Source: Nanobdellota archaeon
GTDB taxonomy: Archaea > EX4484-52 > LFW-46
Reading direction: 5' to 3'
Assembly (NCBI GenBank): GCA_018897155.1
Contig: JAHILE010000040.1
Coordinates: forward strand, 20,157 to 84,156
Length of the DNA: 64,000 nucleotides
Each line of letters starts with the position of its first letter. Position 1 is the first letter of the stretch. The position numbers and the translations under genes are program-made. A model generated the notes under the pieces. It was not told where the DNA came from and searched no databases. It saw only the letters and a list, made by a program, of their open reading frames with translations. Of this stretch, positions 4,301-49,143 are shown one piece after another.

Positions 4301-6249
4301 GAGGAATACGCCTCCATGAGATTGCGCATTTTTCCGCCTTCAATGCCGCAGGGAAAAAGTATCTGAGGCTTGCCTTTCAAAAGTCGTTTTTCCGCCTTTT
4401 CTGGTCTGCCCATTCTTATGCCTATGCGCGTCAATCCCCGTTCACGCACCCTTATTCCTGCAAGTTTTGATACTGCAGACATGGCTGATGTTTCCTGCGC
4501 AATAGATGCTAAAATATCTGCAACATTCTCTTTTGTCGGCTTTCCAAGCGAATAATATGCTCCAAGCGATTTTCCGGACAATATTACTTTTTCATCTTTT
4601 ACCGTACAAGGAGTACAAAGGATTTCAAGAATCCGAAATGATTCTGCCTTTGCAAGCGCAGCACGTTCGCCTTCAGCATCATTCTCGATTGTAGCTGTTG
4701 AAAACCATTGAATGAGTTCTTTCAATTCTCCGATTGACAAATCATGCCAAAAGAAATTGTACTCCGGATGAAGCGGTATTCCAAGCTCGCGCGCAATGTC
4801 GAAAGCCTCCGAAATCGTCGGCGGCTTTAAAGCATATTTTTCATAAGAATACTCTGAATTCTTTTCAGAAATTGCTTTTTTCAATTCCAGCAGCCACCAT
4901 TCTTTGCAATAAGCCGAGGGCATCAACATATGATTGTTTGACACAAACTCGCCATATGGAACAACAATATCCCCTAAAGAAAGAATGGACTCAACAGATG
5001 TTTTGTGCTGTTTCACTTCCTCGCGCGTCCTTAGTTCAAGAATGGTTCCATTTCGAAGTTTTACTATCGGAGGATCTATTGTATCGCAAGGCGCACAAAC
5101 AGTGGCCTTTCCAGGAAACTCTGTTGCAAGCTGAGTGCCTACTGCAATGAATTCTGTAAGCCACATCGTAGCAGGGTGCAAAGAAGTTGCTGCAAGCCCT
5201 CCTGTTCTTGAGCGGCCGTATCGTAATCTGAAACCGCCGCGTTTTGAAGGATGTGAGAATATCGGCCTTCCTGCAAGCACTTTTGAAAGATATGTGTCTT
5301 TAGGGGTATATTTTGCCGCATTCGGATTGTCTTTTAGCTCAACCTTTTTTGCAGCATGAATGCTGTTTTTCAGCTTTACAAAATCTGCAAGCCACAGCCA
5401 GTTTTTAAGATCGTATTCTTCAGGATATTTCTTCACCCTGCCAAGAACTTTCTCTGCCTTAAGCGGGATTCCGTCAAGAAGAATCAGGCACATCCCCCCA
5501 CGAATTTTATTTGTTTCAACTCTTGGAAGATCCTTGCAGGTTGAGACTTCAAGCTCTTCTGTAGGGTCTCCAGTAATTTCTACAGGAACGTTTTTTATTA
5601 TTGCGGTCATTTCCTCTTTTGTCGGATGATATTGCTTTGCAGTGACGCGCGTGTAATAATCCTCGACCTCGACAAAATACCGATTTATCTCTGCTTCTGT
5701 GGGCTTGTAAGCACCTATTTTCAGCGCCTTTCTTATGAAATCCGCTGCAAGAACAGAAACTGCTGAGGCGGTTCCTCCTGCAGACCTTATCGGGCCTGCG
5801 TAATAGACTGCAAGATAATCTGTTCCGTCATCATTCTTTTTGATAAGAACTTTTGAAATCCCCTCAAGAGGCGCAGTCACAACACCGAGTGTAAGATAGG
5901 CTACTGCAATGCGCAAACCGACCTCTGCGAATTTTTCTGCGGTTCCAAAATCTCCGTATTTTCCTATTGCAACATTCCTGCCGATAAGAAGCGCCACTCG
6001 CTCGTCATTTTTGCCGTACTTCCCCTCAAGCACCCGTATTCCTTCCTTCAACCCTGAACCAAAAAGCGTTGGAAAAAACGTAGAAACAAGGCCTTCGACT
6101 CTTGCCGCAAGGTCCTCTGCAAGAAGGATTTCAACAGTTGTCTCGGGATCTTTACCTTTTGCGCGAGCAGCTGTTGCAATAGAATATGCATTGTCAACCT
6201 CTTTTTGTATTGAGTCAAAATATTTTTGAGTCTGTGCATCAGTCTGCAT
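1375..6249 (-). CDS. DNA polymerase II (PolD) large subunit DP2, intein-containing
   Basis: The N-terminus is DP2-like ('YFDSIQKEVDNAYSIATAARAKGKDPE'). The conserved 'HPFWHAGKRRN|CDGDED' catalytic block is split by an insertion. The C-terminal Zn finger reads 'CATCNAKYRRVPLIGKCYCGG'. At 1624 aa it is larger than the ~1150 aa expected for DP2. Confidence 0.9.
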   Translation of the reverse strand: MQTDAQTQKYFDSIQKEVDNAYSIATAARAKGKDPETTVEILLAEDLAARVEGLVSTFFPTLFGSGLKEGIRVLEGKYGKNDERVALLIGRNVAIGKYGDFGTAEKFAEVGLRIAVAYLTLGVVTAPLEGISKVLIKKNDDGTDYLAVYYAGPIRSAGGTASAVSVLAADFIRKALKIGAYKPTEAEINRYFVEVEDYYTRVTAKQYHPTKEEMTAIIKNVPVEITGDPTEELEVSTCKDLPRVETNKIRGGMCLILLDGIPLKAEKVLGRVKKYPEEYDLKNWLWLADFVKLKNSIHAAKKVELKDNPNAAKYTPKDTYLSKVLAGRPIFSHPSKRGGFRLRYGRSRTGGLAATSLHPATMWLTEFIAVGTQLATEFPGKATVCAPCDTIDPPIVKLRNGTILELRTREEVKQHKTSVESILSLGDIVVPYGEFVSNNHMLMPSAYCKEWWLLELKKAISEKNSEYSYEKYALKPPTISEAFDIARELGIPLHPEYNFFWHDLSIGELKELIQWFSTATIENDAEGERAALAKAESFRILEILCTPCTVKDEKVILSGKSLGAYYSLGKPTKENVADILASIAQETSAMSAVSKLAGIRVRERGLTRIGIRMGRPEKAEKRLLKGKPQILFPCGIEGGKMRNLMEAYSSGKVTAEFPVFKCTSCGAENVFSMCPKCNVRGTPRNICQSCNSIVEATMHCNQPTKKYRKMTIKLKELLDEAFKNISVVQLPKLFKGVRGVSGPERSMEYLEKGVLRTKYELYVNKDGTTRYDASDISMTHFKPSELGVSVAKLKSIGYVNDYLGRPLENENQILELSVQDIVISDNEEFSSVNYMLNVSRFIDELLVKFYSLPPYYNMNSREDLVGQLVVGLAPHTSAGIVGRIVGFTRSKVCYAHPFWHAGKRRNCFFGNEKIIVHDGKEFRLSTIRELVETNLTDGVETDAFGTEYKTIAGLKTFAFNKLTKKFELSDMTHVSKHPAPQILLEIKTKCGRKIVVTPDHLLLNKCGEKIRAEDATEVLIPWQIENPITSDVEKIDLLDVVNNRNVMVRTEEQIFGNGTILSQISANLGMNYKTLTNYVYRKFYPLDIVEHFSQNLFENKKYFLGSKRDSISIKPEILLNEDFLCILGFYLAEGYTKKNQKNTHQISITATKARVKAYLETKIKDVFGLTPNTSGNAVTICSRFVYELFNYLEVGKDARSKRVPNFVYSLPKEKLAALLRGYFSGDGSCAIQSTLEVNVTSVNKWLIDSVSVILMFLGIKHSIYEENREIKSELILKFYGKPKFLHSYKIRLYGDDARKYIETIGFVEDKQVRAKALLEQWLTKKGTARAVLEGDSFVDKIVGKKFIENREKYVYDVTVDMHHNLICSGIVAGNCDGDEDSIMLLMDALLNFSRKFLPDTRGGRTMDAPLVLTSKLNPEEVDDEAWRVDISSEYPLEFYEDTMNYKTISELTKKPRLVADVIKTSEVFHIKFTHGTADVNDAPIKTKYVELGSMKDKVTAQLGLAEKIVAVNKDSVAELVISKHFLRDIKGNLRTFSEQKVRCATCNAKYRRVPLIGKCYCGGKLMLSVSEGAIRKYVEPTKHIIEKYKISPYLFQQFSLLEKDIDSLFGKKARQLGLERFNAK
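2128..3531 (-). other. intein (468 aa) with LAGLIDADG homing-endonuclease domain inside DP2
   Basis: It begins 'CFFGNEKIIVHDG' directly after 'AGKRRN' and ends 'ICSGIVAGN' directly before extein 'CDGDEDS'. Two LAGLIDADG motifs are present: 'LCILGFYLAEGYT' and 'LLRGYFSGDGS'. Confidence 0.75.
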
Positions 6250-9206: not shown

Positions 9207-9278
9207 GGACCTGTAGTCTAACGGATAGGACACGGCCTTGCGGAGGCTGAGATCCGGGTTCGATTCCCGGTGGGTTCG
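9207..9278 (+). tRNA. tRNA-Arg(GCG), no intron
   Basis: The T arm CCGGG TTCGATT CCCGG is canonical. The anticodon stem is CGGCC/GGCTG with loop TTGCGGA. The D stem is GTCT/GGAC. The acceptor GGACCTG/TGGGTTC carries three G-U pairs. Confidence 0.6.
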
Positions 9279-9303
9279 TTTTTAATCATCATGCAAGTTG
9301 TGT

Positions 9304-10194
9304 TTATTTTGTCGTCACAATCGGCTCGTCCGCTACAATTACTGTATGCTCTGCCTGAGATATGCAGCCACCAACAACTTCTTTTAACGGAGGATATGTG
9401 TGAAGCCCCCCTAAAGAAACAAGCTCACGAAGTCCGTTTTCTCGCAGCATTCCTTTGACACAAATTATGCTTCTCGATGAAAATGGCAAACCATTCAGCT
9501 TTTTTGCAAACAATTGTATGTTCCTTGCACTATCAGAACGGGGAGAAACATCCCGGATAAAACTAAAAATCATTGCGCGCGAAGTGTCCTTAACCTCGCC
9601 GGAGCCATCTGTTGCAAAGGGTTCTATTGCGATTACATCACCTTCATTCAGAATGGCTTTTGAAGTATTCATGACATTGGGGATGCTGGGCGCTCCATGA
9701 ATTATGTATTTTCCAAGATAATGCCCTGTAAGGTTTGCTATCGGAAAGAACCCTGATTTTCGTATTGTGGCCTCAATAATTCCTGAAAGTTCAAATATTT
9801 TTGCGCCAGGGCGCACGACAGAAATAGCAGCCTGGAGCGCAGATTTTGATGCATCAACAAGATCAAGTTTCTTTTTATCGCTGCCAAGGTAAATTGTTAC
9901 AGCAGTGTCTGCGATATATCCCTCAACATGCACTCCGAGGTCTATCTTCACCATGTCGCCTTCTTGAAAAACTTTTGAATCATTGTCTATTGGAGTGTAA
10001 TGCGCTGCGATTTCATTCAATGAGATATTTGCAGGAAACGCCAGTTCCCCGCCAAGTGCCGTTATTTCCGATTCTATTTTTTCTGCAGCATCAAGCAATT
10101 TTGCGCCGGAAACAATCCATTTTTTTGATTTTTCACGGACTTGGGAGGCTATTTTTCCGGCGCGCATATAACAATCAAGAGTCTGTGTATCCAT
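9304..10194 (-). CDS. map: methionine aminopeptidase, type 2 (archaeal/eukaryotic)
   Basis: Pita-bread fold motifs; 'GHYLGKYIIHGAPSIPNV' and 'GDVIAIEPFATDG' are MAP2-like. Confidence 0.8.
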   Translation of the reverse strand: MDTQTLDCYMRAGKIASQVREKSKKWIVSGAKLLDAAEKIESEITALGGELAFPANISLNEIAAHYTPIDNDSKVFQEGDMVKIDLGVHVEGYIADTAVTIYLGSDKKKLDLVDASKSALQAAISVVRPGAKIFELSGIIEATIRKSGFFPIANLTGHYLGKYIIHGAPSIPNVMNTSKAILNEGDVIAIEPFATDGSGEVKDTSRAMIFSFIRDVSPRSDSARNIQLFAKKLNGLPFSSRSIICVKGMLRENGLRELVSLGGLHTYPPLKEVVGGCISQAEHTVIVADEPIVTTK

Positions 10195-10238
10195 ACAATC
10201 ACTAAAGGTATATAATATTATATGACACTATAACTTTT

Positions 10239-11852
10239 ATGAGCTTTAAATTTCTGTTATTCATACTCATTCTTCTTTCTCCGATTACAAATGCCGAAAT
10301 AACCATAAACGAAATAATGTACGCGCCAAACAGCAACTGGGGTGGAGAAAATAATGAGTGGATAGAATTGTTTAATAACGGCATAGAAGATGCAAGCATC
10401 GCAAACTGGACAATCGATGAAAAAACAATACCTTACGCCATCGTTCCGGCGCAAGGATATTTAATCCTTGCAAAAAACACAACAAAATTCATAGAAGTAT
10501 ACGGCCGATCGTCTGTCCGCGTACCGTTTACGCTTTCAAACAGTGGAAAGGCGCTGTACTTAAAAACAGCTGGCGGCTCAACAATAGATTCCTTCGAGTA
10601 TACAGAATACGCCACTAGCGAGATGGCCAAAAACAACAACCGCACACTTGAACGAAATACAACAATCTGGCTTGAAAGCGCTGGGGTTGGTGGAACTCCG
10701 GGAGAGCAAAACAGCATATCATTCAACGCGCCTCCGGTTCAAACTCCAATGAATGAAACGAAAAACACAACAAATACAACACCATCCACAAATACTCAAG
10801 AAAATGACAGTGATATCCCGAACACGCAACAAAATCAGGAATCAGAAAATCCAATGAGCCTCGAAATACTTGTCGCGCCGGATACAATGAACTTCGGCGG
10901 ATATTCCACGATTCGTGCAAAATTCAATTCAGGAAACCGAGACTTCGAAACAGTGCGCTTTGTAGCATACATCTATAAGCCGTCGTGGATTTTGCGCGAC
11001 CTGAATGGCAACGGAACAACGCTGCGAAATTCGCCATATAATTCAAATGCTGCTGCAGAAGTTCGAGAAATTTCCGCAGACGAAACATATTATCTCGTAC
11101 TCCCGATTTTTCTAAAATGCAACACAGAAGGATATGCTGATGCCACCTATACAGCCCGGCTGCGCGCTTATACTTATGAAAACGACGAATGGAAGGCGCT
11201 AACAGAAAGCGACATAAATATTTTTGTCAGTGGAGAAAGCGAATCTTGCAAAAAAGAAATTGGAAAAGAAACCTCGTGCATAAATAAAACAATTGAAAAA
11301 AACTGCACTGAAAAAACAAAAATATTGCGCGAATATGCGCTTGAAATCAACATCACTCACCCGGAAATTATTTTTGCCGGCGAAAATTTCACTACAACGG
11401 TTTTTCTAAAAAACAATGGCGAAAAATTGCGCGACATTGAAATATACTCATACATGTACGAGCATAGCACAATAATATCAAGCGGATTTGATGGCACAAA
11501 ATGGGGCAATACAAGAACTGCGAACTCGAGAAAAGTAACGCTTTCAGCAAACGATTCCATAACAATTGAACTTTTGAATCGGGCAAAAGAAAATGCAAGC
11601 ACGGAAAAGTACACCTATAAGGTAGTTTTTGCTGATTTGGCGGACGATAAAAAATCAGAGGAACGAATATCTCTGATTGAGCTTGATGCGCGCAATGCAT
11701 CTGAAACTAACGGCTTAAAAAACGAAACGCTTTCAAACATGACCGAAATAGAAAATAAAATTACCGGGAATATGCTTGCGAAAAACGCAGTACCGAAAAA
11801 GCTTTCGCTTTTTGACAGAATAATATATAAAATAAAAAGCTGGCTAATTTAA
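10239..11852 (+). CDS. secreted lamin-tail-domain (LTD) protein with many N-glycosylation sequons
   Basis: An N-terminal signal peptide is present. The LTD signature reads 'INEIMYAPNS...NEWIELFNNG...ANWTIDEK'. There are more than 15 N-x-S/T sequons. Confidence 0.55.
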   Translation: MSFKFLLFILILLSPITNAEITINEIMYAPNSNWGGENNEWIELFNNGIEDASIANWTIDEKTIPYAIVPAQGYLILAKNTTKFIEVYGRSSVRVPFTLSNSGKALYLKTAGGSTIDSFEYTEYATSEMAKNNNRTLERNTTIWLESAGVGGTPGEQNSISFNAPPVQTPMNETKNTTNTTPSTNTQENDSDIPNTQQNQESENPMSLEILVAPDTMNFGGYSTIRAKFNSGNRDFETVRFVAYIYKPSWILRDLNGNGTTLRNSPYNSNAAAEVREISADETYYLVLPIFLKCNTEGYADATYTARLRAYTYENDEWKALTESDINIFVSGESESCKKEIGKETSCINKTIEKNCTEKTKILREYALEINITHPEIIFAGENFTTTVFLKNNGEKLRDIEIYSYMYEHSTIISSGFDGTKWGNTRTANSRKVTLSANDSITIELLNRAKENASTEKYTYKVVFADLADDKKSEERISLIELDARNASETNGLKNETLSNMTEIENKITGNMLAKNAVPKKLSLFDRIIYKIKSWLI

Positions 11853-11876
11853 CAAATTATTAAAGTATCTCTAAAG

Positions 11877-12134
11877 ATGATTATGGCAACTCTGCAAAAT
11901 TTGGAAAAAGAAATAGAAAAACTAAAGGAACGAAACATCCGTGTTGAAGCCGACAAAGCATGGGAAACAAGCTATTCGCGGCGAATGCTTCTTATGGTGT
12001 ATACGTATCTTGCAGTTGGTTTTTATCTAAGCGCGACGTATCTTGCAGTTGGTTTTTATCTAAGCGCGATAAAAATCGCTAGTCCCTGGATGAATGCGAT
12101 AGTCCCTACAGTCGGATTATGCTTTCAACGCTGA
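11877..12134 (+). CDS. small hypothetical protein carrying an internal tandem duplication
   Basis: An 85-aa ORF; 'TYLAVGFYLSA' occurs twice because of a 33-bp DNA tandem repeat. Confidence 0.3.
   Translation: MIMATLQNLEKEIEKLKERNIRVEADKAWETSYSRRMLLMVYTYLAVGFYLSATYLAVGFYLSAIKIASPWMNAIVPTVGLCFQR
12003..12068. repeat. perfect 33-bp tandem duplication (2 copies)
   Basis: The unit 'acgtatcttgcagttggtttttatctaagcgcg' occurs twice back-to-back. Confidence 0.8.
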
Positions 12135-12347
12135 CGATGCCGTTTTTCAAGAAATTGTGGTTAAAACACAAATACGAGAGATAATAGCCCTTTTTAAAGA
12201 TGGAAAAACAATAAGAATTATCGAGCGAGTTCAAAAACATTTGATAAATATATACATAAAAAATATATACGTATTCTAGTGTCTTTTGGATTCCCGTATC
12301 CTCGCGCGTTCGTGCCCGGATATATGAAAACAAAAAAGGCGTAATTA

Positions 12348-13595
12348 ATGAAATTCGAAGAATTGAACCTTAAACCCCTTATTCTGAAAAAGATTAAAGA
12401 AGAAGGGTTTTTGGAACCGACAGAAATACAAGAAAAATGCATTCCCGAAATAAAAAAAGGACGGGATGTTGTAGGCCAGGCAATGACTGGATCGGGCAAA
12501 ACAGTAGCGTTCTGCATACCGATTATAGAGGCCGTATCTCCCGGAAGAGGAGTTCAGGCGCTTATTCTTACACCTACAAGAGAATTGTGCGTGCAGGTAT
12601 CCGACACATTCCATAAATTCGGCCGCGAGATGAACGTACACACAACCGCAATATATGGCGGCGTCGGGATGGAGCCGCAATATCATGCGCTGAAGCGCGC
12701 TGATGTTGTCATAGCAACTCCTGGAAGGCTGATGGACCATATGCGCAGAAATTCGATAAAATTAGCCGGTCTGAGATATCTTGTGCTTGATGAAATGGAC
12801 AAAATGCTCGATATGGGTTTTGTCGATGATGTTGACACCATTGTCAGAAATATTCCGAAAAATAGGCAGACTATGCTTTTCAGCGCGACAATGCCGCAAA
12901 GCATAAATTCGCTGATTCACAAATATCTGAATTCACCGCAAATTCTGCGGGCGCAGACAAAGGTTGACAAAAGCCTCCTGAAGCAGATATATTATGTTGT
13001 CGAGCAACATGAAAAATTCTCGCTTCTTGTGCATTTATTGAAGCACAAAACAAGCGGTTTTGCAATGGTCTTCTGCGGAACAAGGCATCAGGTTGATGCG
13101 ATTACCCGGAATCTGCAGAAAAACAGCATAAATTCAATGGCAATACATGGCGGCCTGACTCAAAACAGGCGAATGCATGCGCTTGAATCTCTGAAAAAAG
13201 CCAGCATTGATGTTCTTGTCGCAACAGATGTTGCTGCACGAGGGCTTGACATACAGAACGTAACGCACGTTTACAATTTCGACGCCCCGAAAACTCCTGA
13301 TGAATACACGCACCGCGTCGGAAGAACTGCAAGAGCTGGAAAAGCAGGCGATGCAATAACGCTTTTATCTCATCGGGATTTTGAAAATTTCGACCGAGTC
13401 CTGCGCGATAAAACCCTTGAAGTCAGAAAAGAAGAGCTGCCGAAATTCGAGCGCATCCATTTCAAAGCGCGCGAAGATACTTTTGTAAGAAGCGGTGGAC
13501 GAGATTTTCGTGGCGGAGGGCGTGAAAGCCAAGGCCCGAGAAAAAGCTTTGGCGCGCCCAAATTCCAGAAAAGAGTAAGATGGAAAGACGGATAA
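12348..13595 (+). CDS. DEAD-box ATP-dependent RNA helicase
   Basis: Q-motif, Walker A 'AMTGSGKT', 'DEMD' (DEAD variant), 'SAT' and motif VI 'HRVGRTARAG'. The C-terminal tail is RGG-like. Confidence 0.85.
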   Translation: MKFEELNLKPLILKKIKEEGFLEPTEIQEKCIPEIKKGRDVVGQAMTGSGKTVAFCIPIIEAVSPGRGVQALILTPTRELCVQVSDTFHKFGREMNVHTTAIYGGVGMEPQYHALKRADVVIATPGRLMDHMRRNSIKLAGLRYLVLDEMDKMLDMGFVDDVDTIVRNIPKNRQTMLFSATMPQSINSLIHKYLNSPQILRAQTKVDKSLLKQIYYVVEQHEKFSLLVHLLKHKTSGFAMVFCGTRHQVDAITRNLQKNSINSMAIHGGLTQNRRMHALESLKKASIDVLVATDVAARGLDIQNVTHVYNFDAPKTPDEYTHRVGRTARAGKAGDAITLLSHRDFENFDRVLRDKTLEVRKEELPKFERIHFKAREDTFVRSGGRDFRGGGRESQGPRKSFGAPKFQKRVRWKDG

Positions 13596-40504: not shown

Positions 40505-40774
40505 ATGGCAGAATACCCGAACATTACGGAAACGAATTACTTTACAAATCGTGCGCTTGAGAATGAAAGTGGTGAAAAAAACGGCAAAATCATTATGTGG
40601 CGCGTTAAAGGCAAAGAAAAATTTCATTATGCTCTTAAATGCCCGTATTGTGGCGAAACAACAGAACGTGATGAACTTTTTGAAAAAAAACCATATAGGC
40701 CGTGGTGCGACAAATGCGGTAAGAAAGTAATGGTTGAGAAGATTAAGGCAAAAAAGGAGAAACATAAAAAATAA
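40505..40774 (+). CDS. small zinc-ribbon protein
   Basis: 'CPYCG...17 aa...CDKCG' (CxxC...CxxC) with a Lys-rich tail. Confidence 0.45.
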   Translation: MAEYPNITETNYFTNRALENESGEKNGKIIMWRVKGKEKFHYALKCPYCGETTERDELFEKKPYRPWCDKCGKKVMVEKIKAKKEKHKK

Positions 40775-40923: not shown

Positions 40924-41101
40924 GCCTCGGTAGCTCAGCTCGGTGGAGCGCGTGACTTGTACGTTAATACAAACGCGAGACTCGTACGCTCGTGATATGT
41001 CTTCAAAGCAAAGATATCACGCGGTCGAGGGTTCAAAAACAGGATTTTGTTTAAAGTGGATAACATCTCAGCATTTCCTGTGGAACTTCCCTCCCGAGGC
41101 T
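40924..41101 (+). tRNA. tRNA-Thr(UGU) with two introns (anticodon loop and T-loop)
   Basis: GCCTCGG-TA-GCTC AGCTCGGTG GAGC. The anticodon stem is CGTGA/TCACG with loop CTTGTA|intron(~55 nt)|A. The T-stem GAGGG...CCCTC is interrupted after TTCAAAA by ~50 nt. The acceptor 3' strand CCGAGGC is perfectly complementary. Confidence 0.55.
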
Positions 41102-41412
41102 TAAACTATTTTTTAAGCTTTTTTTGTAATTGTAAAGCACATTTGAATAATAAAATTACTTGAAAACCTGAAGAATTTACTTAATTTTTCATTATTTTTT
41201 ATAAAATCGTGGGCAGAATACCCACAAATTTATTTGTGGGATGAATGCCGTGCCTCTTTTCAGTTTTTGTGCGAGAGGCAGAAACAGTAAAAACATTTAA
41301 TAGAGTTTTCTGTTCATTCTGGCTCATTAGAGCAATTGGGACTAAGTATCAAGGGGACAATTTTAATTCGTAGGGGAGGGAGCGACCTGTTTTGTTCTTT
41401 TACAAAAGCAAA

Positions 41413-43593
41413 TTATAGTTTTAAGAATTTCCAGTCCGATAAGTTATTCTCATCATAATTGTATCTTTCATTATCGTTATATCTACAACTCTCATCTTTA
41501 AAGATAATAATCCCGCCAAATAGCTTTTTATTATGCTTTTGATTTTGTGTTTTAATGTATTTGCTTAGTGCTTCTGCTTTTTCTTTAGCGACTTTTGCGG
41601 TTATTCCACTTTTAGTATCAAAAATACCTATTCTTCCATCATCAAGCATAATTACAAAATCAACATAAAATCCTCTTTCCACACCTGCATCGTCTTTATA
41701 TTTTACTGCAAGGTATTTTTTATCTGATTCTCCGTTTTTGAACCACCATTTAACAGAATTTTTTGGATTTTCAAGTAGTTTTATGAAATCTTTTTCTGGC
41801 ACACTTTCGGCAGAAATAAAATAAGGTTTCATAATTGCTTTTTTATGTGGCAATTCTTTGTATTTGCTGTTATAAGTTATTAGTTTGGGAACATTCCAGA
41901 CAAGATGCTCTGTTTCTCTTTGTTCTGGCAATCCTCCAACAATCTTGAGTTTGTATTCCTCTTTTGCTTCATTAATGCAATCAGTAAATAACTGATTATT
42001 TTCTTCTCCTAAAATTATCTTTTGAGCAAAAGTTTCATCTTCGATTTTTATTACTTTTTCAAAAAACTTATAGAGTGCTGTTCTTATTCTTCCTTGTGAA
42101 TCAGCAGGAGCAAAAGGAGTACAGCTTCCTCTTACAAATAAGTCAAATCTATGTTGTAATTCAACAGCACTTAACTTAAATTGCATTTCTCCTTTATGTT
42201 CTACTGTTTGAACTTTATCTAAAACCAATATTTTTCCATCAACCATTATTTTAGTTACGAGAGATTTTGGCTTTAGATTTATTTTCTTTGCAAGTTCGCT
42301 TTTTTGTGCAATTTCTAAGAATAATTTTGTAAATTCTCCAGAAAGTCTTGTCTTTTCTCTTTGTCTTATGAGATAGATTGAATTAAGATCAATATTGCTA
42401 TATAATTCTTCTCTTCTTTTTGCTTCGTAAATTGTGATATAATCTTTAGCGACTTCTTCAGTTATGTTAATGTCAGCAAGATTTGTGAATACATAACCTT
42501 TATTCAATTCTTCAGTTTCATAATGCTTAAACTCTGGCATTCTCATTATTCTGCCTACTGTCTGAATGGTAAAGTCCATACTTTGCATATCTCTGAACAT
42601 TACCAGAATGTATGCTCTTGGACAATCCCAACCTAATGCTATAGCTTGTTTGAAAATAAGAACTTGAACATCGTTATCAGGCATTTCAATATTCTCAAGG
42701 TTGGTTTTTTCTTCTGATAAATAAATCCCTAATTTTCCGTTTTCTGTTGTTATTTTGAATTTATCTCTTAAAATTCCCGTAATCTGTTCTTGCCTGTCAA
42801 TAACTCCTGTCTTTTTATCAGGAAGCTGAATTAAAATTAATGGATTGATATCGGATTTTTCTTTTTCTAATAGTTTAAGCATTTCCTGTCTTTTCTTTAA
42901 AGCACATTCAATAACTAATTCATCAGGAGATTTGTCAGAAACTTTTCCTTTGTCTAATTCTGGATTTATGGCAATTTCTTTCTTTATCATTCCCTCTTTT
43001 CTTACATCTTCAAATTCTACAAGAACATTATAAAAAGAATGAATGTGCGGAGTAGCTGAAACTTCCAAAATTACATCGGGATCAATATCATTTATTAAAT
43101 TTCTTGAAGTTTCTGTTTTAGCAGTAAAGTGACTTTCGTCTATAATTAAAACTATTTTTGTGCCGTCTTCTTTCGTGTTTTCAATAATTTTAGATAAATT
43201 TCTTTCCTGTTCATTTTCTCTAATATAAACATTATCTGTTTTGTTTATGCTTTCCCAATTCAAGAACAAAATTTCATCTGGCTCAATTTTATTACCTACT
43301 AAATCTTCAAAAAATTTACACTCTATCGCTCTTGTCGTAGAATAATATTTATCTAATTTTTCTTTACTTTGTGTATGTAATTGTCTTGGAGCTGTCCAAA
43401 TAAAAGCGATTTGCTTTCCATCGTCTCTTCTATCAACAAGTCTTTTAATAAATTCGGCCACCATTAAAGTTTTACCAGAGCCTGTCGGAGATTTAAAAAC
43501 TAAAGTTTCTCTTGAATCTCGATTTAGTAATTCGTTAATCTGTTCTTTTAGTTTTAAAATTGCTTTCTCTTGATAATCTTTAATTTCAATCAT
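41413..43593 (-). CDS. Type III restriction enzyme Res subunit (SF2 helicase + PD-(D/E)xK nuclease)
   Basis: Walker A 'SPTGSGKT', DEAH-like 'LIIDESH' and a C-terminal 'VDFVIMLDDGRIGIFDTK' nuclease motif. Confidence 0.75.
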   Translation of the reverse strand: MIEIKDYQEKAILKLKEQINELLNRDSRETLVFKSPTGSGKTLMVAEFIKRLVDRRDDGKQIAFIWTAPRQLHTQSKEKLDKYYSTTRAIECKFFEDLVGNKIEPDEILFLNWESINKTDNVYIRENEQERNLSKIIENTKEDGTKIVLIIDESHFTAKTETSRNLINDIDPDVILEVSATPHIHSFYNVLVEFEDVRKEGMIKKEIAINPELDKGKVSDKSPDELVIECALKKRQEMLKLLEKEKSDINPLILIQLPDKKTGVIDRQEQITGILRDKFKITTENGKLGIYLSEEKTNLENIEMPDNDVQVLIFKQAIALGWDCPRAYILVMFRDMQSMDFTIQTVGRIMRMPEFKHYETEELNKGYVFTNLADINITEEVAKDYITIYEAKRREELYSNIDLNSIYLIRQREKTRLSGEFTKLFLEIAQKSELAKKINLKPKSLVTKIMVDGKILVLDKVQTVEHKGEMQFKLSAVELQHRFDLFVRGSCTPFAPADSQGRIRTALYKFFEKVIKIEDETFAQKIILGEENNQLFTDCINEAKEEYKLKIVGGLPEQRETEHLVWNVPKLITYNSKYKELPHKKAIMKPYFISAESVPEKDFIKLLENPKNSVKWWFKNGESDKKYLAVKYKDDAGVERGFYVDFVIMLDDGRIGIFDTKSGITAKVAKEKAEALSKYIKTQNQKHNKKLFGGIIIFKDESCRYNDNERYNYDENNLSDWKFLKL

Positions 43594-45337
43594 TCTTGAA
43601 AACCTTCCTATAAACTTTTAAGATTGTTTCTGGAATAGGACATAAAGTAACTTTGTTTTTAATGGTTTTAAATTCCTTTGTCGGCACAGAATCATCATGC
43701 GAGAATACATATACATGGATTTTTCCGTTTATTTTTTCTGCTTCTTTGACAAATTCATCAATATACTCGTCATCAAATACTATTCCTAAATGCAGTTTAT
43801 CATTTTTGAAAATCTTGAATTTCTTTGTGTCTTTGACTTTTTCAAAAGTATTTTCCTTAATGCAAAGCATTTCTGTGCAGTTATCAACCAGTTTACGCTT
43901 GTTTTTATCTGTTTGCTCTGCTTCAACAAAATCTGTTTTATAATATTTGAGATTACCGCCAAGACCTTCGATTTTTTCGTTAGATGCGTTAGTATATCCT
44001 TTAATTATTTTTTGTATTCTTGGATAACATACATCTGAGCAAATATTGCCTTCATTATTAGTGCATAAAATAAATGATAAATCTTGATTGAGTTCATCGT
44101 TTAGTTCCATTACTGCATGGCCTGTAGTTCCTGAACCTGCCATGAAATCTAAGACAACGCCTTTTTCTGGACAAGAATATTTAATTAGTTCTTTAAGTAA
44201 TTTCTTAGGTTTTGGATAATTAAATAATTGTTTACCAAATATATTTCTAAGCTCCTTTGTCGCAGCTTGATTTAAATCAGATTGCATTATTTTTATTCCA
44301 TTTTCGTCTTCTTCAGAATCAATGGCGACTTTTTTTATAACCGATGCTTCTATCCATGTTGATAAAGGTTTAAAGTTAGATTTTAACTCGTTTGCAAACC
44401 GTTTATATTGTGGTGTTCCGTTCTCTTTTTTTGGAAAGATTACTTTACCTGCTTTAATCTCATTTAACATTCTAACTCTCTCAAAACGCCAAACCCTGCT
44501 TGGATTAGCAGGATAAACCTTTCCTGTTTTAGGGTCGGTTATATCATAATATAAATTAGGTCTTTCATCTTTTGTTTTACCGCAAGTAAGATCTCCTGCT
44601 GTCCAAGGGCCCCTAGGGTCGTTATTAGGATTCTTATAGTTGCTTAAATCTTTCTCTATACCAAAAAGAGAGGCTTTTTCTGATTTTTTATAGCAAAAAA
44701 TATATTCATGGTCAGTTGATACTAAATTTTTTGGATCATTTGCTCCACTTCTTCTTTTCCAAACAAAATTAGCTACAAAATTGGTCTCTCCAAATATATC
44801 CTCACAGAGTAGTTTTAATTGTGCATTTTCATTATCATCAATCGAGATAAAAATAATTCCTGTATCTTTTAGTAGATTTTTAGCAAGAGCTAAACGCTTA
44901 CTCATAAAAGAAAGCCATTTACTATGTCTATATCCATCTTCTTTATCTACAAATTTATCATTATACTTAAAATCCTTATTTCCTGTGTTATACGGTGGAT
45001 CTATATAGATAACATCCACAGAATTTTTATGTGTGAAATTAAGAACAGCAAGTGAATGGTAATTATCTCCTTCAATTAAAAGATTAACTGGCTTGTCTTT
45101 ATCTGAATTTATCTCTTTATCTTTTACTTCTGCTAAAACTGGAAACTTATCTTTACTTTCTGGGCTAAATTCTTCTTTAGTCTTTTCGCCTTCCCAGTTA
45201 ATGAATAAGTCAAAATCTTCTTTAGTTTTCTCTCGTTCCCAAACTAAACCGTAAGTTTTTTGCTTCTTTAAAGCCAAAATTTCTCTTATGAGCTCCTCTT
45301 TTGACCATTCAATGTAATTTCTTTTTCCATTAACCAT
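43586..45337 (-). CDS. Type III restriction-modification Mod subunit (N6-adenine DNA methyltransferase, beta class)
   Basis: Motif IV 'IYIDPPYN' precedes motif I 'LDFMAGSGTTGHA'. The gene overlaps res by 8 nt. Confidence 0.8.
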   Translation of the reverse strand: MVNGKRNYIEWSKEELIREILALKKQKTYGLVWEREKTKEDFDLFINWEGEKTKEEFSPESKDKFPVLAEVKDKEINSDKDKPVNLLIEGDNYHSLAVLNFTHKNSVDVIYIDPPYNTGNKDFKYNDKFVDKEDGYRHSKWLSFMSKRLALAKNLLKDTGIIFISIDDNENAQLKLLCEDIFGETNFVANFVWKRRSGANDPKNLVSTDHEYIFCYKKSEKASLFGIEKDLSNYKNPNNDPRGPWTAGDLTCGKTKDERPNLYYDITDPKTGKVYPANPSRVWRFERVRMLNEIKAGKVIFPKKENGTPQYKRFANELKSNFKPLSTWIEASVIKKVAIDSEEDENGIKIMQSDLNQAATKELRNIFGKQLFNYPKPKKLLKELIKYSCPEKGVVLDFMAGSGTTGHAVMELNDELNQDLSFILCTNNEGNICSDVCYPRIQKIIKGYTNASNEKIEGLGGNLKYYKTDFVEAEQTDKNKRKLVDNCTEMLCIKENTFEKVKDTKKFKIFKNDKLHLGIVFDDEYIDEFVKEAEKINGKIHVYVFSHDDSVPTKEFKTIKNKVTLCPIPETILKVYRKVFKND

Positions 45338-45391: not shown

Positions 45392-46030
45392 TTATTTAAC
45401 CATTGTGTTGCATTCTTCTAATCTTTCACAAAGCAAACTGGCAAAACTCAGATATTTTAATGCCCTGTTTTTATCTTTTTGGATAATATTCTCATGTCCC
45501 TTTGGGTTTCTTATACCCATTATTGCACCTGCATAAAGATGCATAAATCCTTCTTGTTCATCTTTATCTGATTGGGATACAAGTCCATTCATTTTTAGTA
45601 GAGGGCTATTTACACTAAAAGCAGTTAGCATAAGACTTTTACCATCCAAGTCTTTGCGACAAGATTTCTCTTTAACAAGATTATTTATTTTCTTAAAAGC
45701 CTCAAAAATTGCTTGAGCATAATGTTTATCATAAAATAATTTTTTACTGACGGATTCTATTTCAGGATGGATATTTAATAATCTAAAATATTCCACTTCT
45801 GTTTTTTTCCCTTCATAGAAATCCGCATTATTTTTTTGAATCCAACCTTTATCCTCTAAACGTAAGAATTTTTTACAGGATTTAAGTTGCATTAAAATAT
45901 TTGAGCAGGTTATTTGATATTCGTCAAAAAGTTTGTTTTTTACGTCGCTTGGCCTTCTATGTTCTAGAAAGTATCCATTTTTCCATAATTCGCTTATTGC
46001 AGTATTTATTTTCATGTTAATCAGATACAT
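45392..46030 (-). CDS. hypothetical protein in RM island
   Basis: A 212-aa ORF with no catalytic motif recognised. It lies on the same strand immediately upstream of mod. Confidence 0.35.
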   Translation of the reverse strand: MYLINMKINTAISELWKNGYFLEHRRPSDVKNKLFDEYQITCSNILMQLKSCKKFLRLEDKGWIQKNNADFYEGKKTEVEYFRLLNIHPEIESVSKKLFYDKHYAQAIFEAFKKINNLVKEKSCRKDLDGKSLMLTAFSVNSPLLKMNGLVSQSDKDEQEGFMHLYAGAIMGIRNPKGHENIIQKDKNRALKYLSFASLLCERLEECNTMVK

Positions 46031-46394
46031 AAGCCCATTTCTTTAATTTTGTCCCATTATTTAGCGTCTTGGTCTTTTTAAGAGAGCCATTCCTAACAAT
46101 ATTCCTTAGTGGGAGCGTAATGTCTGATGCTTTAAAATGGTAGTCTTTTTCTTTTAACTTATCCAACATTTCTTTTACAGTTCTAGGTTGATTAAAAAAG
46201 TTTCCTAAAGAAAGAATCTTCTCAGTAGTGCTTCCTTTTCTGTACCAGTTAGCTAATTTCTCACTTTTCACTTCTTTGGATTTAGACGCTGGCTCTTTGC
46301 GTTCTAAAAGGGTAATTCTTCTTTCATGGTCATCAAGAATTGCCTTAAACTCTTTTTCTGTTATCATCTTTATCATCTCCGAACATAAACCCAC
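46017..46394 (-). CDS. small winged-helix-like protein, paralog 1
   Basis: Its C-terminal half aligns with ORF 46373..46741 (ILxxGFFNxPxxxxE...KKWxYV). Confidence 0.4.
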   Translation of the reverse strand: MGLCSEMIKMITEKEFKAILDDHERRITLLERKEPASKSKEVKSEKLANWYRKGSTTEKILSLGNFFNQPRTVKEMLDKLKEKDYHFKASDITLPLRNIVRNGSLKKTKTLNNGTKLKKWAYVSD

Positions 46395-46741
46395 TTTTTC
46401 TCTTGTTTAATTCTTCTTAATTCCTTACCTTTTACCAATCCTAGAACTATTGCAGATAAGGTGGTAATTGGGATAAATGTTCCTTGTTCTTCAAGCCCTT
46501 GTTTCAATTCAGCCAGACTTTTTGGCTTGTTAAAAAATCCTTCTGCAAGAATCTTTCTGATAGTATCTGTTATAGTTGGTTTTGAATTAGCCTTAGCTTT
46601 GATAAATTTTTTAAATTCTTTTGCAGGAGTTTCAGGAGTTTTTTCATCTTTATATAGATTCATAACTTTTGAAATCTCTTCTGGAGTACCCTCTATAACA
46701 ATTTTAGTCCCATCTTTTGTTTCAATATTTGCTTTAGTCAT
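46373..46741 (-). CDS. small winged-helix-like protein, paralog 2
   Basis: 'TITDTIRKILAEGFFNKPKSLAELKQGLEE...KKWVYVRR'. Confidence 0.4.
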   Translation of the reverse strand: MTKANIETKDGTKIVIEGTPEEISKVMNLYKDEKTPETPAKEFKKFIKAKANSKPTITDTIRKILAEGFFNKPKSLAELKQGLEEQGTFIPITTLSAIVLGLVKGKELRRIKQEKKWVYVRR

Positions 46742-46799: not shown

Positions 46800-47600
46800 C
46801 CTATTTGTCCAGTGGTTCGTAGTTTCGTCGCCCCCTCCCCTGTTCGTCGTTTTTCGTTTAAATTTGTCCCCCTTCTTGAGATTTCACTTTGTGAAATCTC
46901 CTATTGTTAGCTGTCCTTTCAATTCTGTAGGGCATCCATAAATATCATATTCAAAGACATCTTTGCCTTGCTGTTCTTGAATGTATCTCTTAACTTGCTC
47001 TTGTGAAACGTGTCCAGCAGAGCCACAGTAATAACCTCTTGCCCAGAGGTTATCAAAACCTTTGCCGAAGTGCTGTTTATATCCAAGATACCTTAATTCA
47101 GGAAAGCATCGCCTTAATTGTATTGAAGTATTGCCTTTCAGCTTATGAATTATCTTGAAAGGAGTTACTGTCGGCTTTGCACCTACGAATAGATGCAAGT
47201 GGTCAGGCATAATCTCGAATGCCAGATTGCTAATGCTCATTTCTTGGCATTGCCCTTCAATGATTGCTTTCAGAACTTCAACAACCTTTCCAGTCAATAC
47301 TGGCTTCCTGTATTTTGGAATCCAAATAATGTGGTAATTGATGTTGTATTTGCAATGGTGAGATGTCCTCACAGTTGCGATTTTACTCTCGATTTTGTGC
47401 ACTTCTGGATTGAAGTGCGGATATAGTTTTTTAGTCATAGCGACCACCTCATGCTGAAGGTGGTTGCTTGTATCGTTAGGGGGTTCTCGTTTAGCGAACC
47501 ATACATTAAACTTTTAGCGTAGCGACCTCTGCAAGAGGGAAAAGTTTAAGTTAAATGGTTTGCGTGAGAAACCCCCAGCTTTAGCTGGATTTATTTTGGG
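46800..47600 (-). mobile_element. IS200-like insertion (TnpA only) with subterminal hairpins
   Basis: A perfect hairpin GAGATTTCAC-TTT-GTGAAATCTC (46878-46900) overlaps the tnpA stop. Imperfect palindromes GGGGGTTCTC/GAGAAACCCCC lie at 47474-47582. No tnpB was found, and the boundaries are approximate. Confidence 0.45.
46884..47447 (-). CDS. tnpA: IS200/IS605-family transposase TnpA (HUH Y1)
   Basis: 'YHIIWIPKYRKPVL', 'DHLHLFV' (HuH), 'LKGNTSIQLRRCFPEL' and 'WARGYYCGSAGHVSQEQVKRYIQEQ'. Confidence 0.85.
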   Translation of the reverse strand: MVAMTKKLYPHFNPEVHKIESKIATVRTSHHCKYNINYHIIWIPKYRKPVLTGKVVEVLKAIIEGQCQEMSISNLAFEIMPDHLHLFVGAKPTVTPFKIIHKLKGNTSIQLRRCFPELRYLGYKQHFGKGFDNLWARGYYCGSAGHVSQEQVKRYIQEQQGKDVFEYDIYGCPTELKGQLTIGDFTK

Positions 47601-47632
47601 AGTATGTTATTTCTAAAAATAAATATTATTTA

Positions 47633-47764
47633 TCTCCCACCCCATCATTTCCCTTAGAGATGTTTTTTGATTTTTCAATATGTTGCTATTGTTATAACAA
47701 TGTTATATTCGGTTCTATATAGGTATAGTATATAGTTCCATACGAAATGATGGGGTGGGGGTGT
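47633..47764. promoter_or_regulatory. predicted replication origin core: 16-bp perfect inverted ORB-like repeats flanking ~90-bp AT-rich DUE, upstream of orc1/cdc6
   Basis: 'GGGAAATGATGGGGTGGG' (antisense at 47633-47653) and 'GAAATGATGGGGTGGGGGTG' (47745-47764) face each other across AT-rich DNA. The GGAAATGA...GGGGT core resembles archaeal ORB elements. Confidence 0.5.
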
Positions 47765-47922
47765 TTAAAATCGAAAAATATTTTCATTTTTTATTTTTCA
47801 AAAAATCTTAAAAATTTCTATTGGAACTTTAAGAGGGGTTGGGTTCTTATGGAAACCCCAGAAAGAAAAAGATATAAGCTTTTTAAGCAAATAAAGCATA
47901 CCTTTGTTTCTCATGGAGGGCG

Positions 47923-49143
47923 TTGATGCAAATGGCTCAAACAACAATTCAGCAAATATTCTCTAATTATATGACAAAGCAACCGCTTTTTTTAGATAAA
48001 CGAGCACTTACTACATCATACACACCGGAAAATGTTCCGCATAGGGAAGAACAGATATCACAACTTGCATCGATTGTCACTCCTGTTCTGAAAAAAGAGA
48101 GGCCTTCAAATGTTTTTATATACGGTCCAACAGGAAGTGGCAAAACACTTGTTACGCAATATGTTGCATCAGAGCTAAAAACGGCGGCAAAAAACAACAA
48201 CATACCATTTCATATTGTTTATGTGAATTGTAAAATGAAACGCGTGGCTGATACAGAGTACCGCCTCCTTGCGCACCTTGCAAATCTGCTCGGAAAAACC
48301 GTACCGCCCACAGGCTTGCCCACAGATCAGGTATATAAGATATTTTACAGCGCGCTTGATGAGCGTGAAGGCGTGGTTATATTTATCATTGACGAAATAG
48401 ACGCGCTTATTAAAAAAGTCGGTGACGAACTGCTTTACAATTTTACAAGAATGAATCAAGATATAAAAAATGTAAAGGTGTCTATAATCGGTATTTCAAA
48501 CGACATTGCATTTACAGAAAATCTTGATGCGCGTGTCCGATCATCCCTTTCAGAAGAGGAACTTCTCTTTCCACCATATAACGCACTTCAGCTTCAAAGA
48601 ATACTTTCAGAGCGCGCAAGCATAGCATTCAATAAATCAAAAGTATCCGATGGCGTGATTTCAAAATGTGCGGCTCTTGCAGCCCAGGAACATGGCGATG
48701 CAAGGCGCGCATTGGATTTATTGAGGGTTGCAGGAGAGCTTGCAGAGCGTGAAAACGCGCCAATGGTTGAGGAAAAGCATGTTGATGCCGCAGAATCAAA
48801 GGTTGACCTGGACCGGGTAATAGAAACAGTAAAAATGCAGCCCAAACAGTCAAAAGCAATACTTTACAGCATAATTTATCTTACGCGCGGTGATGAAAAG
48901 ACCTGCCTTTCAGGCGATGTTTATGAGGAATATGTGCGCATCACAAAGGTCCTTGGCCTTAAGCCCCTGACACAGAGGCGTGTTTCTGACATAATTTCAG
49001 AGCTTGACATAATGGGTGTAATAACGTCAAAAGTCATAAGCAAGGGGAGGTATGGGAGAATGCGTGATATTGGCCTTGCTATATCGACGGAGATTTACCA
49101 AAAACTGCTGAATTTTTTAAAGAGCGATTTTGGATTTGATTAA
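47923..49143 (+). CDS. orc1: Orc1/Cdc6 replication initiator
   Basis: An AAA+ domain ('IYGPTGSGKT', 'IIDEIDAL') plus a C-terminal winged helix. Confidence 0.85.
   Translation: MMQMAQTTIQQIFSNYMTKQPLFLDKRALTTSYTPENVPHREEQISQLASIVTPVLKKERPSNVFIYGPTGSGKTLVTQYVASELKTAAKNNNIPFHIVYVNCKMKRVADTEYRLLAHLANLLGKTVPPTGLPTDQVYKIFYSALDEREGVVIFIIDEIDALIKKVGDELLYNFTRMNQDIKNVKVSIIGISNDIAFTENLDARVRSSLSEEELLFPPYNALQLQRILSERASIAFNKSKVSDGVISKCAALAAQEHGDARRALDLLRVAGELAERENAPMVEEKHVDAAESKVDLDRVIETVKMQPKQSKAILYSIIYLTRGDEKTCLSGDVYEEYVRITKVLGLKPLTQRRVSDIISELDIMGVITSKVISKGRYGRMRDIGLAISTEIYQKLLNFLKSDFGFD

Follow-up and report, generated by a model that had tools for sequence, protein, structure and literature searches.

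HEPN domains beside restriction-modification (R-M) systems are a known theme, and the proposal that HEPN RNases act there as a second line of defence is over a decade old. To our knowledge, how such RNases are silenced and triggered is understood in only a few cases, PrrC being an example. PrrC and RloC have an ABC-type ATPase at the N-terminus, and a specific Type Ic enzyme holds PrrC. In HEPN-MNT systems a minimal nucleotidyltransferase serves as the antitoxin and AMPylates the toxin. The controller (C) proteins of R-M systems are Xre-type HTH dimers, each tied to a particular REase gene. The Ymh family of HEPN domains has been reported solo, or fused to paraMORC, AbiJ-NTD1/2 or AbiTii (PMC3710099, Anantharaman et al. 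2013). PD-lambda-3 behaves as an abortive-infection system in E. coli (PMC13190303). Beyond CRISPR and R-M, the defence repertoire of DPANN and other uncultured archaea is poorly charted (PMC12988326).

The window considered here is the whole analysed stretch of 64,000 nucleotides. It contains a Ymh protein, ORF C, that resembles several of these systems in part. ORF C is a bona fide member of Ymh (PF09509/TIGR02391) with the Rx4H motif and an R-M neighbourhood as reported (PMC3710099), but it is fused to a winged helix (wHTH) and has two small paralogous wHTH genes, ORFs A and B, upstream. These wHTH partners of a HEPN domain and the architecture of the cassette appear to be undescribed. As with PrrC and RloC, a HEPN RNase would be linked to a restriction system, and the proposed logic is again a latent RNase that steps in once restriction has been overcome. 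However, ORF C (207 aa, wHTH plus HEPN) has no ATPase match. Any type of restriction system can be the neighbour of the cassette, which makes a specific contact between enzyme and RNase unlikely. The regulatory role would fall to the small wHTH proteins instead.

The other candidates do not hold up. The PADLOC model PD-Lambda-3_B matches the HEPN domain of ORF C (E 3e-13), but the match is confined to the Ymh domain (model positions 142-264 of 270). PADLOC finds no match to PD-Lambda-3_A in any of the five proteins (ORFs A-C, Mod and Res), and the listed PD-(D/E)XK nuclease partner is absent. Since PD-lambda-3 is called only where its A and B proteins occur together, one B-like part does not make the cassette PD-lambda-3. 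HEPN-MNT is rejected because ORFs A and B are wHTH proteins with no NTase match in Pfam, NCBIfam or PADLOC. The PADLOC model Aga_HEPN matches ORF C in its HEPN part only (positions 249-380 of 382). A HEPN associated with a short pAgo is rejected since there is no Argonaute-sized unknown among the neighbouring ORFs in 38-52 kb, which are Cdc48, mod, res, tnpA and Orc1. ORFs A and B do resemble C proteins in being small HTH-type proteins at the head of an R-M cluster. They differ in being winged helices with extra N-terminal modules, in accompanying a nuclease-type effector, and in occurring also where there is no R-M system. With no Xre match, and with ORF C and mod separating them from res, they do not fit the description of C proteins.

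The three genes and their setting

ORFs A, B and C are three co-oriented, closely spaced genes at 45392-46741 on the reverse strand, directly 5' of a Type III mod and res pair (Table 1). Both parts of a Type III system are found at the locus, a Mod (beta-class N6/N4 MTase) and a Res (SF2 helicase-nuclease). A nuclease-like D...D-T-K motif can be read off the C-terminal translation of Res. We treat mod as a neighbour that is outside the cassette proper. The mod and res genes overlap by 8 nt, and ORF C is separated from mod by 54 nt. A preliminary description had already recognized three small genes adjoining the R-M operon with tight same-strand spacing, and the order of the ORFs bears this out.

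Table 1. Features of the cassette, the adjoining R-M genes and the inverted repeat
Feature	Position in window	Strand	Residues or length	Remarks
ORF A	46373..46741	-	122 aa	
ORF A N-terminal beta-beta-alpha mini-domain	46652-46741	-	res 1-30	
ORF A C-terminal winged helix (wHTH)	46376-46579	-	res 55-122	
ORF B	46017..46376	-	119 aa	counted from ATG 46376; ATGA overlap with ORF A stop
ORF B C-terminal wHTH	46020-46241	-	res 46-119	paralogous to that of ORF A
ORF C	45392..46015	-	207 aa	counted from ATG 46015
ORF C N-terminal wHTH	45830-46015	-	res 1-62	same family as A and B
ORF C C-terminal Ymh/TIGR02391 HEPN domain	45404-45772	-	res 82-204	
Type III mod	43586..45337	-	583 aa	PF01555 E 3.8e-41; PADLOC MTase_III E 9.6e-93
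Type III res	41413..43593	-	726 aa	PF04851 ResIII E 2.3e-21; PADLOC REase_III E 5.6e-17
Inverted repeat, left arm	41353..41386	+		GGGGACAATTTTA-6 nt-AGGGGAGGGAGCGAC; bipartite, imperfect
Inverted repeat, right arm	46827..46871	-		GGGGACAAATTTA-17 nt-AGGGGAGGGGGCGAC; same repeat

The start codons deserve some care. The overlap of about 20 nt between ORFs A and B that was described previously arises because the GTG start of the longest ORF was used (GTG 46394, 125 aa). The ORFs are as they were listed, but that overlap is probably not real. For ORF B, the homologues as well as the NCBI gene call start from the MIKM/MITEKE methionines, not from the GTG. A start at ATG 46367 would give 116 aa and a 5-nt gap to ORF A. 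ORFs A and B are likely to overlap by 4 nt (ATGA) or not at all. The most likely start of ORF C is ATG 46015, 1 nt past the ORF B stop, in agreement with NCBI call P0056; the mechanical start at ATG 46030 gives 212 aa (45392-46030). The ATGA overlap of A and B and the single nucleotide from B to C are spacings of the translational-coupling type. Co-transcription of the cassette with mod and res is possible since the 54-nt spacer has no oligo-T tract. TATA-like octamers lie 43-47 nt 5' of the start codons of ORF A and mod, but they are weak in a sequence that is 70% A+T. A sigma-70 promoter scan gave fewer matches than shuffles, the model being uninformative for an archaeon, and an Rfam scan of 40-48 kb had no match.

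The A-B-C-mod-res block is bracketed by an inverted repeat whose 15-mer matches twice in the window against 0.01 matches expected. Its right arm sits between the upstream region of ORF A and an IS200 tnpA. The bracketed block coincides with a low-GC zone (about 30% versus about 41% in the flanks), and no convincing direct repeats of the att type were found around the island. Since one inverted repeat brackets both cassette and R-M genes, their adjacency in this genome could be a case of co-mobilisation.

ORFs A and B are paralogues through their C-terminal domains and have divergent N-termini, as was claimed from the sequence earlier. The part in common is the last 65-70 aa. Their pairwise BLASTP alignment covers 96 aa at 28% identity (E 2e-7), and a profile-profile alignment with hhalign gives E 9.7e-15 over 70 columns. 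The earlier comparison to a winged helix also agrees with an AF2 model of ORF A, which has a mean pLDDT of 75.8, with 85-92 within the wHTH, and the fold order H-H-H-beta-beta. All Foldseek matches to this model are wHTH proteins (Fur, ArsR, BlaI, Z-alpha), but they are generic matches at E>=0.015, so no specific subfamily can be assigned. The N-terminal mini-domain of ORF A has no structural match. It is followed by a Lys/Glu-rich, low-confidence linker, while the N-terminal helix of ORF B carries an ILDDHERRI..LE motif and then a Lys-rich linker. Ten residues of ORF A are invariant across 39 homologues, including the G-F-F and W-x-Y motifs. The recognition helix of its wHTH is largely hydrophobic, which makes DNA binding uncertain.

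Both genes are under strong purifying selection. The dN/dS between the window and homologues is 0.07-0.12 for ORF A and 0.05-0.12 for ORF B. A set of 5.8 billion proteins holds 39 homologues of ORF A, 16 of ORF B and 184 of ORF C, and the ORF A profile reaches 387 clusters (50% identity) at E<=1e-10; the A family has roughly 400-1400 members. The preliminary description would fall if the ORFs lacked conservation and a coding signal. Given the low dN/dS and the many homologues, this is not the case. Pfam, NCBIfam, PADLOC and PHROG have nothing above noise for ORFs A and B, no HTH_3/Xre match is found at E<=1, and profile searches of the PDB with ORFs A, B and C return nothing at E<0.01. A and B appear to form an undescribed and fairly large family of small wHTH proteins.

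ORF C combines a third copy of this wHTH with a HEPN domain, both of which were passed over earlier. The kinship of its wHTH to those of A and B is visible only with profiles; when A or B is compared to C by pairwise BLASTP, no similarity is found. The HEPN domain scores 117.3 bits against PF09509 (cut-off 25; residues 86-204 of the 212-aa form) and 82.7 bits against TIGR02391 (cut-off 39.45), and it is all-alpha as befits the HEPN fold. The catalytic-type Rx4-6H motif is GIR169-N-P-K-G-H174. Across 43 full-length homologues, R169, N170 and H174 do not vary. The domain is a predicted RNase, the activity being deduced from the motif here and for the Ymh family itself. A sequence search of the PDB with the ORF C profile retrieved no solved or characterised Ymh member. 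Only the Ymh part of ORF C, never the N-terminal domain, is matched by tblastn in 72,556 plasmids.

The cassette in other genomes

The cassette is found in Nanoarchaeota, Aenigmatarchaeota, Thermoplasmata, Methanosarcinales, Omnitrophota and other bacteria. Its order is kept: ORF A or a different wHTH protein comes first, one or two small wHTH proteins follow, and a wHTH-effector is last. What changes is the effector domain of the third gene. It can be a Ymh-HEPN, a domain with sub-threshold similarity to DUF4145, a PLD-like domain that matches PADLOC PDC-S05/DrmC, or a class with an invariant N-R-G-x-R-H-D. This last class has no match in any family or profile search. The second, the "GDTSAHNP" domain, has only sub-threshold DUF4145 matches (E 0.05-0.08). 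One can imagine that it is another HEPN. However, hhalign against the Ymh alignment covered only the N-terminal wHTH, so we make no HEPN claim for it. PDB profile searches with the three alternative effector classes were empty.

Restriction genes of five types adjoin the cassette in 13 of 23 annotated non-redundant loci, a rough count since A or C served to find the loci and many of the contigs are short. The neighbour is Type I in L033, L042 and L080; Type II in L001, L006, L009, L031, L034, L078 and L081; Type IIG in L012; and McrBC-like (Type IV) in L026. The Type II neighbours include HinfI, NgoPII, EcoRI-MTase, BsaWI, MvaI/BcnI and C5-MTase. The window is the only one of the 23 loci with a Type III system. 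The remaining 10 loci have no adjacent restriction system, and two cassettes (L077 and L016) sit among housekeeping genes for ribosomal, translation or SUF functions. The link to R-M is therefore statistical and not obligatory. Other neighbours are HicAB, Gp49/HTH, GmrSD, DndB, nSTAND3, a Schlafen-type helicase, an integrase, a serine recombinase and a T4SS coupling protein. The preliminary description had proposed, as one option, an uncharacterised defence add-on of Type III systems. These neighbourhoods come close to it as regards a defence module, but the tie to Type III has to be dropped.

Proposed function and rival explanations

On balance we think that A-B-C is an autonomous toxin or abortive-infection-like module that accompanies restriction systems, and that it does not belong to the Type III enzyme as a subunit. 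ORF C would be the effector, with its HEPN domain a predicted metal-independent endoribonuclease, and active ORF C would arrest translation or growth. ORFs A and B would be built-in regulators or sensors of the cassette. They might silence ORF C by binding it through the common wHTH module, or by repressing the operon. Since they match nothing of known function, this regulator or antitoxin role comes down to gene order, size and the common domain. ORF C could be released by phage infection, or when the neighbouring restriction system fails or is lost. The cassette would then be a portable companion that settles beside restriction systems of any type and provides a second line of defence or addiction that acts on RNA. 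This would parallel proposals for other R-M-linked HEPN proteins.

One can also imagine that the cassette sits beside R-M genes because they travel together on mobile DNA. A HEPN toxin with one or more wHTH antitoxins would then be an addiction (TA) module that stabilises an acquired R-M island. The block is indeed low in GC, a unique inverted repeat brackets it, and it abuts IS200 tnpA. Relatives lie beside the integrases, serine recombinase and T4SS coupling protein mentioned above, and the small genes come before the toxin gene, as they do in type II TA systems. Nevertheless, a set of three to four components whose nuclease effectors can be swapped is more typical of defence systems than of simple TA pairs, and tblastn of ORF A found nothing in 72,556 plasmids and 50,697 phage records. 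We regard pure addiction as unlikely. It must be noted that it is compatible with an autonomous abortive-infection-like module, as many TA modules double as abortive-infection systems. It is harder still to make A and B controller (C-protein-like) or specificity/adaptor factors that are co-transcribed with the adjacent Type III enzyme, the role first suggested for them. The shared strand, the 54-nt gap and the lack of an oligo-T tract before mod would allow this. So would six other loci that have restriction genes 3' of the cassette on the same strand (gaps of 5-160 nt), and DNA binding is common among wHTH domains. But the same cassette occurs beside Type I, II, IIG or McrBC-like systems or none at all, and the restriction type differs even among relatives that are 76-82% identical (Type I in L080, NgoPII in L081). 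The orientation varies too, being divergent or convergent in L001, L012 and L033. A and B have no Xre/HTH_3 signature, and the cassette always brings its own nuclease-type effector, which would be superfluous for a controller. We consider this role very improbable.

The reading to which we give the least credence is that there is no conflict role at all. A and B would be ordinary transcription factors, and C a non-toxic RNA-binding or processing HEPN (of MtlR-type likeness) with a housekeeping or regulatory function. Some loci do lie amid housekeeping genes, and non-catalytic HEPN domains exist (PMC3710099). This does not sit well with a catalytic R-N-x3-H that is invariant in 43 homologues, or with relatives that have a PLD-like nuclease domain in place of the HEPN effector. 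Restriction and defence neighbours are strongly enriched, the setting is a low-GC island, and the distribution is patchy, with only 8 of 185,579 species genomes matching in a pattern scan.

Tentatively, small wHTH proteins with a wHTH-tagged effector could be a new modular immune system, possibly coupled in function to restriction generally, where the wHTH is the assembly or sensing interface and the effector is exchangeable (HEPN RNase, PLD-like nuclease or others). If this is true, the system might sense a failure of restriction, or nucleic acid that is unmodified or foreign, and respond by degrading RNA or DNA. The cassette is a compact and conserved case of three to four genes in which the control of a predicted HEPN RNase can be studied. 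Its control logic is directly testable because the likely regulators and the effector have one domain in common and the effector is swapped among relatives. For two unannotated protein families that are frequent in metagenomes, it also offers a way into their function. Both families have their greatest concentration in DPANN and other uncultured archaea.

Gene layout and domains of the cassette

Five genes are tightly packed on the minus strand of the window in the order A-B-C-mod-res, where ORFs A, B and C are the small genes of the cassette. The preliminary description had A and B overlapping by about 20 nt. This is an artefact of the longest-ORF rule, since the starts of B and C can be corrected from sequence and homologue alignments. 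For ORF B the most likely start is ATG 46376, where an ATGA overlaps the A stop, or else ATG 46367. ORF C most likely starts at ATG 46015, 1 nt past the B stop, which agrees with the NCBI call (207 aa). The tight co-oriented packing is real after this correction.

Features of the cassette, the island and its surroundings
Feature	Coordinates	Strand	Remarks
ORF A	46373-46741	-	122 aa
ORF B	46017-46394	-	125 aa, mechanical GTG start
ORF C	45392-46030	-	212 aa
mod	43586-45337	-	583 aa; Type III methyltransferase (PF01555 E 3.8e-41; PADLOC MTase_III E 9.6e-93)
res	41413-43593	-	726 aa; Type III-like helicase-nuclease (ResIII E 2.3e-21; REase_III E 5.6e-17)
Bipartite imperfect inverted repeat, left arm	41353-41386	+
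Bipartite imperfect inverted repeat, right arm	46827-46871	-
IS200 tnpA	46884-47447	-	IS200/IS605-family Y1 transposase (PF01797 E 1.8e-34; NF033573 E 3.1e-38)
Hairpin	46878-46900		perfect 10-bp stem
GC-richer stretch	40925-41102	-	178 nt
53-aa ORF	40943-41104		strand opposite to GC-richer stretch
Cys-rich ORF	40505-40774		89 aa
19-nt direct repeat	40507-40525 / 41212-41230		84% identical
Perfect 16-nt inverted repeat	47636-47651 / 47744-47759		CCCACCCCATCATTTC / GAAATGATGGGGTGGG; intergenic 47448-47922
orc1/cdc6	47923-49143

The three ORFs are, on sequence grounds, genuine genes. Neither a lack of conservation nor a lack of coding signal was found: a large protein set holds 39 homologues of A, 16 of B and 184 of C, and comparison with homologous contigs gives a dN/dS of 0.07-0.12 (A) and 0.05-0.12 (B). 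The ORF A profile reaches 387 clusters (50% identity) at E<=1e-10; relaxing the cut-off to E<=1e-3 brings this to 1401. Going by names among the A and B homologues, the source of the window is a metagenome-assembled "Nanoarchaeota archaeon".

A and B are paralogous in their C-terminal 65-70 residues, as first claimed (BLASTP E 2e-7, 28% identity; hhalign E 9.7e-15). Their supposed winged-helix-like nature is borne out as well. The ORF A model has a 30-residue N-terminal beta-beta-alpha module, a low-confidence Lys/Glu linker and a winged-helix domain (wHTH) at pLDDT 85-92; Foldseek matches it to generic wHTH proteins only (Fur, Zur, ArsR, BlaI, Z-alpha), and B shares the domain by profile. From N- to C-terminus, the homologue alignment of ORF B shows a conserved helix (ILDDHERRI..LE), a basic linker and the wHTH. 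Neither protein has a match in Pfam, NCBIfam, PADLOC, PHROG or PDB, and both families are without annotation in every library tried.

The third protein exists as a 212-aa ORF (207 aa from its likely start), but its own wHTH copy had been missed. Residues ~82-204, the second of its two domains, match Ymh/TIGR02391 (PF09509 E 4.6e-34; TIGR02391 82.7 bits), and judged by sequence ORF C is a member of this known HEPN family. Anantharaman et al. 2013 (PMC3710099) placed Ymh in the HEPN superfamily with a conserved Rx4-6H motif and noted it "in operon with R-M"; the theme of R-M linkage is known. Their list of Ymh architectures does not include wHTH-Ymh, and plasmid records gave no instance of it, the Ymh part alone matching there. 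The motif in ORF C is R169-N-P-K-G-H174, and R169, N170 and H174 are invariant among 43 full-length homologues. In the AlphaFold2 model (pLDDT 90.8) the first 60 residues form a helix-helix-helix-hairpin. Against the A and B wHTH profiles these residues give in-register alignments (hhalign E 1.6e-5 and 9.8e-7), with a G-[FY]-F...P motif in common. It follows that a single kind of wHTH domain is present in A, B and C alike.

The cassette in other genomes

In total 82 loci were fetched through A, B or C homologues and annotated with alignment-built domain HMMs and Pfam. The first gene of the conserved unit encodes a small wHTH protein, usually A-type (a different, TrmB-like one in loci L077, L078 and L081). 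Next come one or two small wHTH proteins, B-type and/or a 70-100-aa solo wHTH. The last gene encodes a 200-290-aa protein with the same wHTH and an effector-like domain. Two-gene forms occur in L016 and L079. The hosts are Nanoarchaeota/Nanoarchaeia, Aenigmatarchaeota, Thermoplasmata, Methanosarcinales, Omnitrophota and other bacteria; one cassette-bearing contig encodes a sigma-70 factor. The Nanoarchaeia contig of L016 also has a SufB gene split by an intein that carries a LAGLIDADG homing endonuclease (9245-11863).

Restriction genes beside the cassette and effector classes, by locus
Category	Loci
Type III	window
Type I	L033, L042, L080
Type II	L001 (MTase), L006 (MTase + BsaWI), L009 (MTase + HinfI), L031 (EcoRI-type MTase), L034 (C5 MTase + PD-(D/E)XK), L078 (MTase + MvaI/BcnI), L081 (NgoPII + C5 MTase)
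Type IIG	L012 (MmeI-like, with DndB)
McrB/Mrr_N	L026
No adjacent restriction genes	L004, L016, L019, L038, L039, L047, L049, L060, L077, L079
Effector Ymh-HEPN	window, L012, L016, L021, L031, L045, L077-L079, L081
Effector with invariant FLLRKILEK...GDTSAHN (DUF4145 matches sub-threshold only)	L001, L004, L009, L043, L053
Effector with invariant HDR...G.xI...G.K	L006, L026, L038, L049, L052, L060
Effector with invariant N-R-G-x-R-H-D	L033, L036, L039, L042, L057, L059

The HDR class hits the PADLOC candidate PDC-S05 at E 4e-12; its match to DrmC, the DISARM PLD nuclease, is weak. The N-R-G-x-R-H-D class has no match in any search.

Restriction genes lie at most one or two genes from the cassette in 13 of the 23 non-redundant loci with readable flanks. 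In seven loci, the window included, they come 3' of it on the same strand, across gaps of 5-160 nt; elsewhere they are upstream, divergent or convergent. Several of the ten loci without them have other genes of defence or mobility nearby (a Schlafen-type helicase, nSTAND3, a serine recombinase, HicAB). The cassette is portable and tends strongly, though not without exception, to adjoin restriction systems of any kind. It is not a Type III accessory. Its partners vary even for the closest relatives, and these are decisive: L080 (A 79%, B 76% identical) sits after a Type I hsdS-hsdM pair and L081 (C 82% identical) before NgoPII and a C5 methylase. Conservation beside other Type III systems was also checked, and among the 23 loci Type III occurs in the window only.

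The related loci L042, L006 and L012 form dense islands of defence genes. In L042 a Type I system is followed by a second Ymh protein, an unrelated one (9877-10686), L006 has a GmrSD Type IV enzyme (3890-5548), and L012 has DndB and a faint HEPN_RiboL-PSP protein (277-972 and 10830-12431).

Proposed mechanism and alternatives

The best-supported reading is that the cassette is a toxin-type module of the abortive-infection or addiction-like kind. ORF C, a predicted HEPN endoribonuclease, would be the effector. A and B, built on the wHTH domain that is also present in C, would be its dedicated regulators or sensors; they would keep C silent, and a trigger would set it off. We argue this from the intact and strongly conserved catalytic motif, the small partner genes coming first with coupling-type overlaps, the defence and mobile neighbourhoods, and the swapping of the effector domain beside wHTH partners that stay in place. 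Such swapping is typical of conflict systems. The reading also draws on the proposal that R-M-linked HEPN proteins are a suicidal second line upon restriction failure (PMC3710099), and on the abortive-infection behaviour of PD-lambda-3 (PMC13190303), whose B protein has the Ymh domain in common with ORF C.

PrrC is controlled directly by R-M subunits. This is unlikely for C because the neighbouring restriction enzymes are so diverse, and that is why we give the control role to A and B. That these two are instead R-M controller or specificity factors, as the preliminary description offered, is highly improbable, and least probable is that A, B and C are regulators outside any conflict. A pure addiction module of a mobile island is unlikely. 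Only tentatively can the toxin-type module be taken further, to a new modular immune system whose three wHTH proteins would detect failed restriction or foreign nucleic acid and whose effector would be exchangeable. As for known systems, the cassette is not a Type III component, an R-M controller C protein, HEPN-MNT, PD-lambda-3, PrrC/RloC or a pAgo-associated HEPN.

The low-GC island and its borders

The A-B-C-mod-res block is a low-GC island (~30% vs ~41% in the flanks). The bipartite inverted repeat brackets exactly these five genes and is unique in the window, its 15-mer having 2 matches vs 0.01 expected; it is absent from 79 fetched loci. The repeat may delimit a cassette that is mobilised whole; alternatively, it may have to do with the ends of the neighbouring IS200, whose tnpA is found immediately beyond one of the arms. 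This genome probably acquired the cassette together with the Type III system, as one block, and they may move as one. The tnpA has no tnpB partner, and a hairpin overlaps its stop codon.

Read-through from C into mod is possible since their 54-nt spacer has no oligo-T tract. TATA-like octamers lie 43-47 nt 5' of the start codons of both A and mod, which is weak evidence in sequence of 70% A+T.

The GC-richer stretch lies at the island's left edge. Its two ends are complementary (GCCUCGG...CCGAGG), its fold is somewhat more stable than those of shuffled versions (MFE -51.2 kcal/mol, z -2.3), and Rfam has no match to it. This stretch may be a small RNA, or what is left of an integration site; the 53-aa ORF opposite is probably spurious. 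One copy of the 19-nt direct repeat takes in the 5' end of the Cys-rich ORF. The other is within a terminator-like hairpin just outside the left inverted-repeat arm. On the other side, the 16-nt inverted repeat flanks a 92-nt AT-rich spacer directly upstream of orc1/cdc6. The arrangement resembles an archaeal replication origin with its origin-recognition-box pair and unwinding element. Both IS200 and the low-GC R-M island directly adjoin this putative origin.
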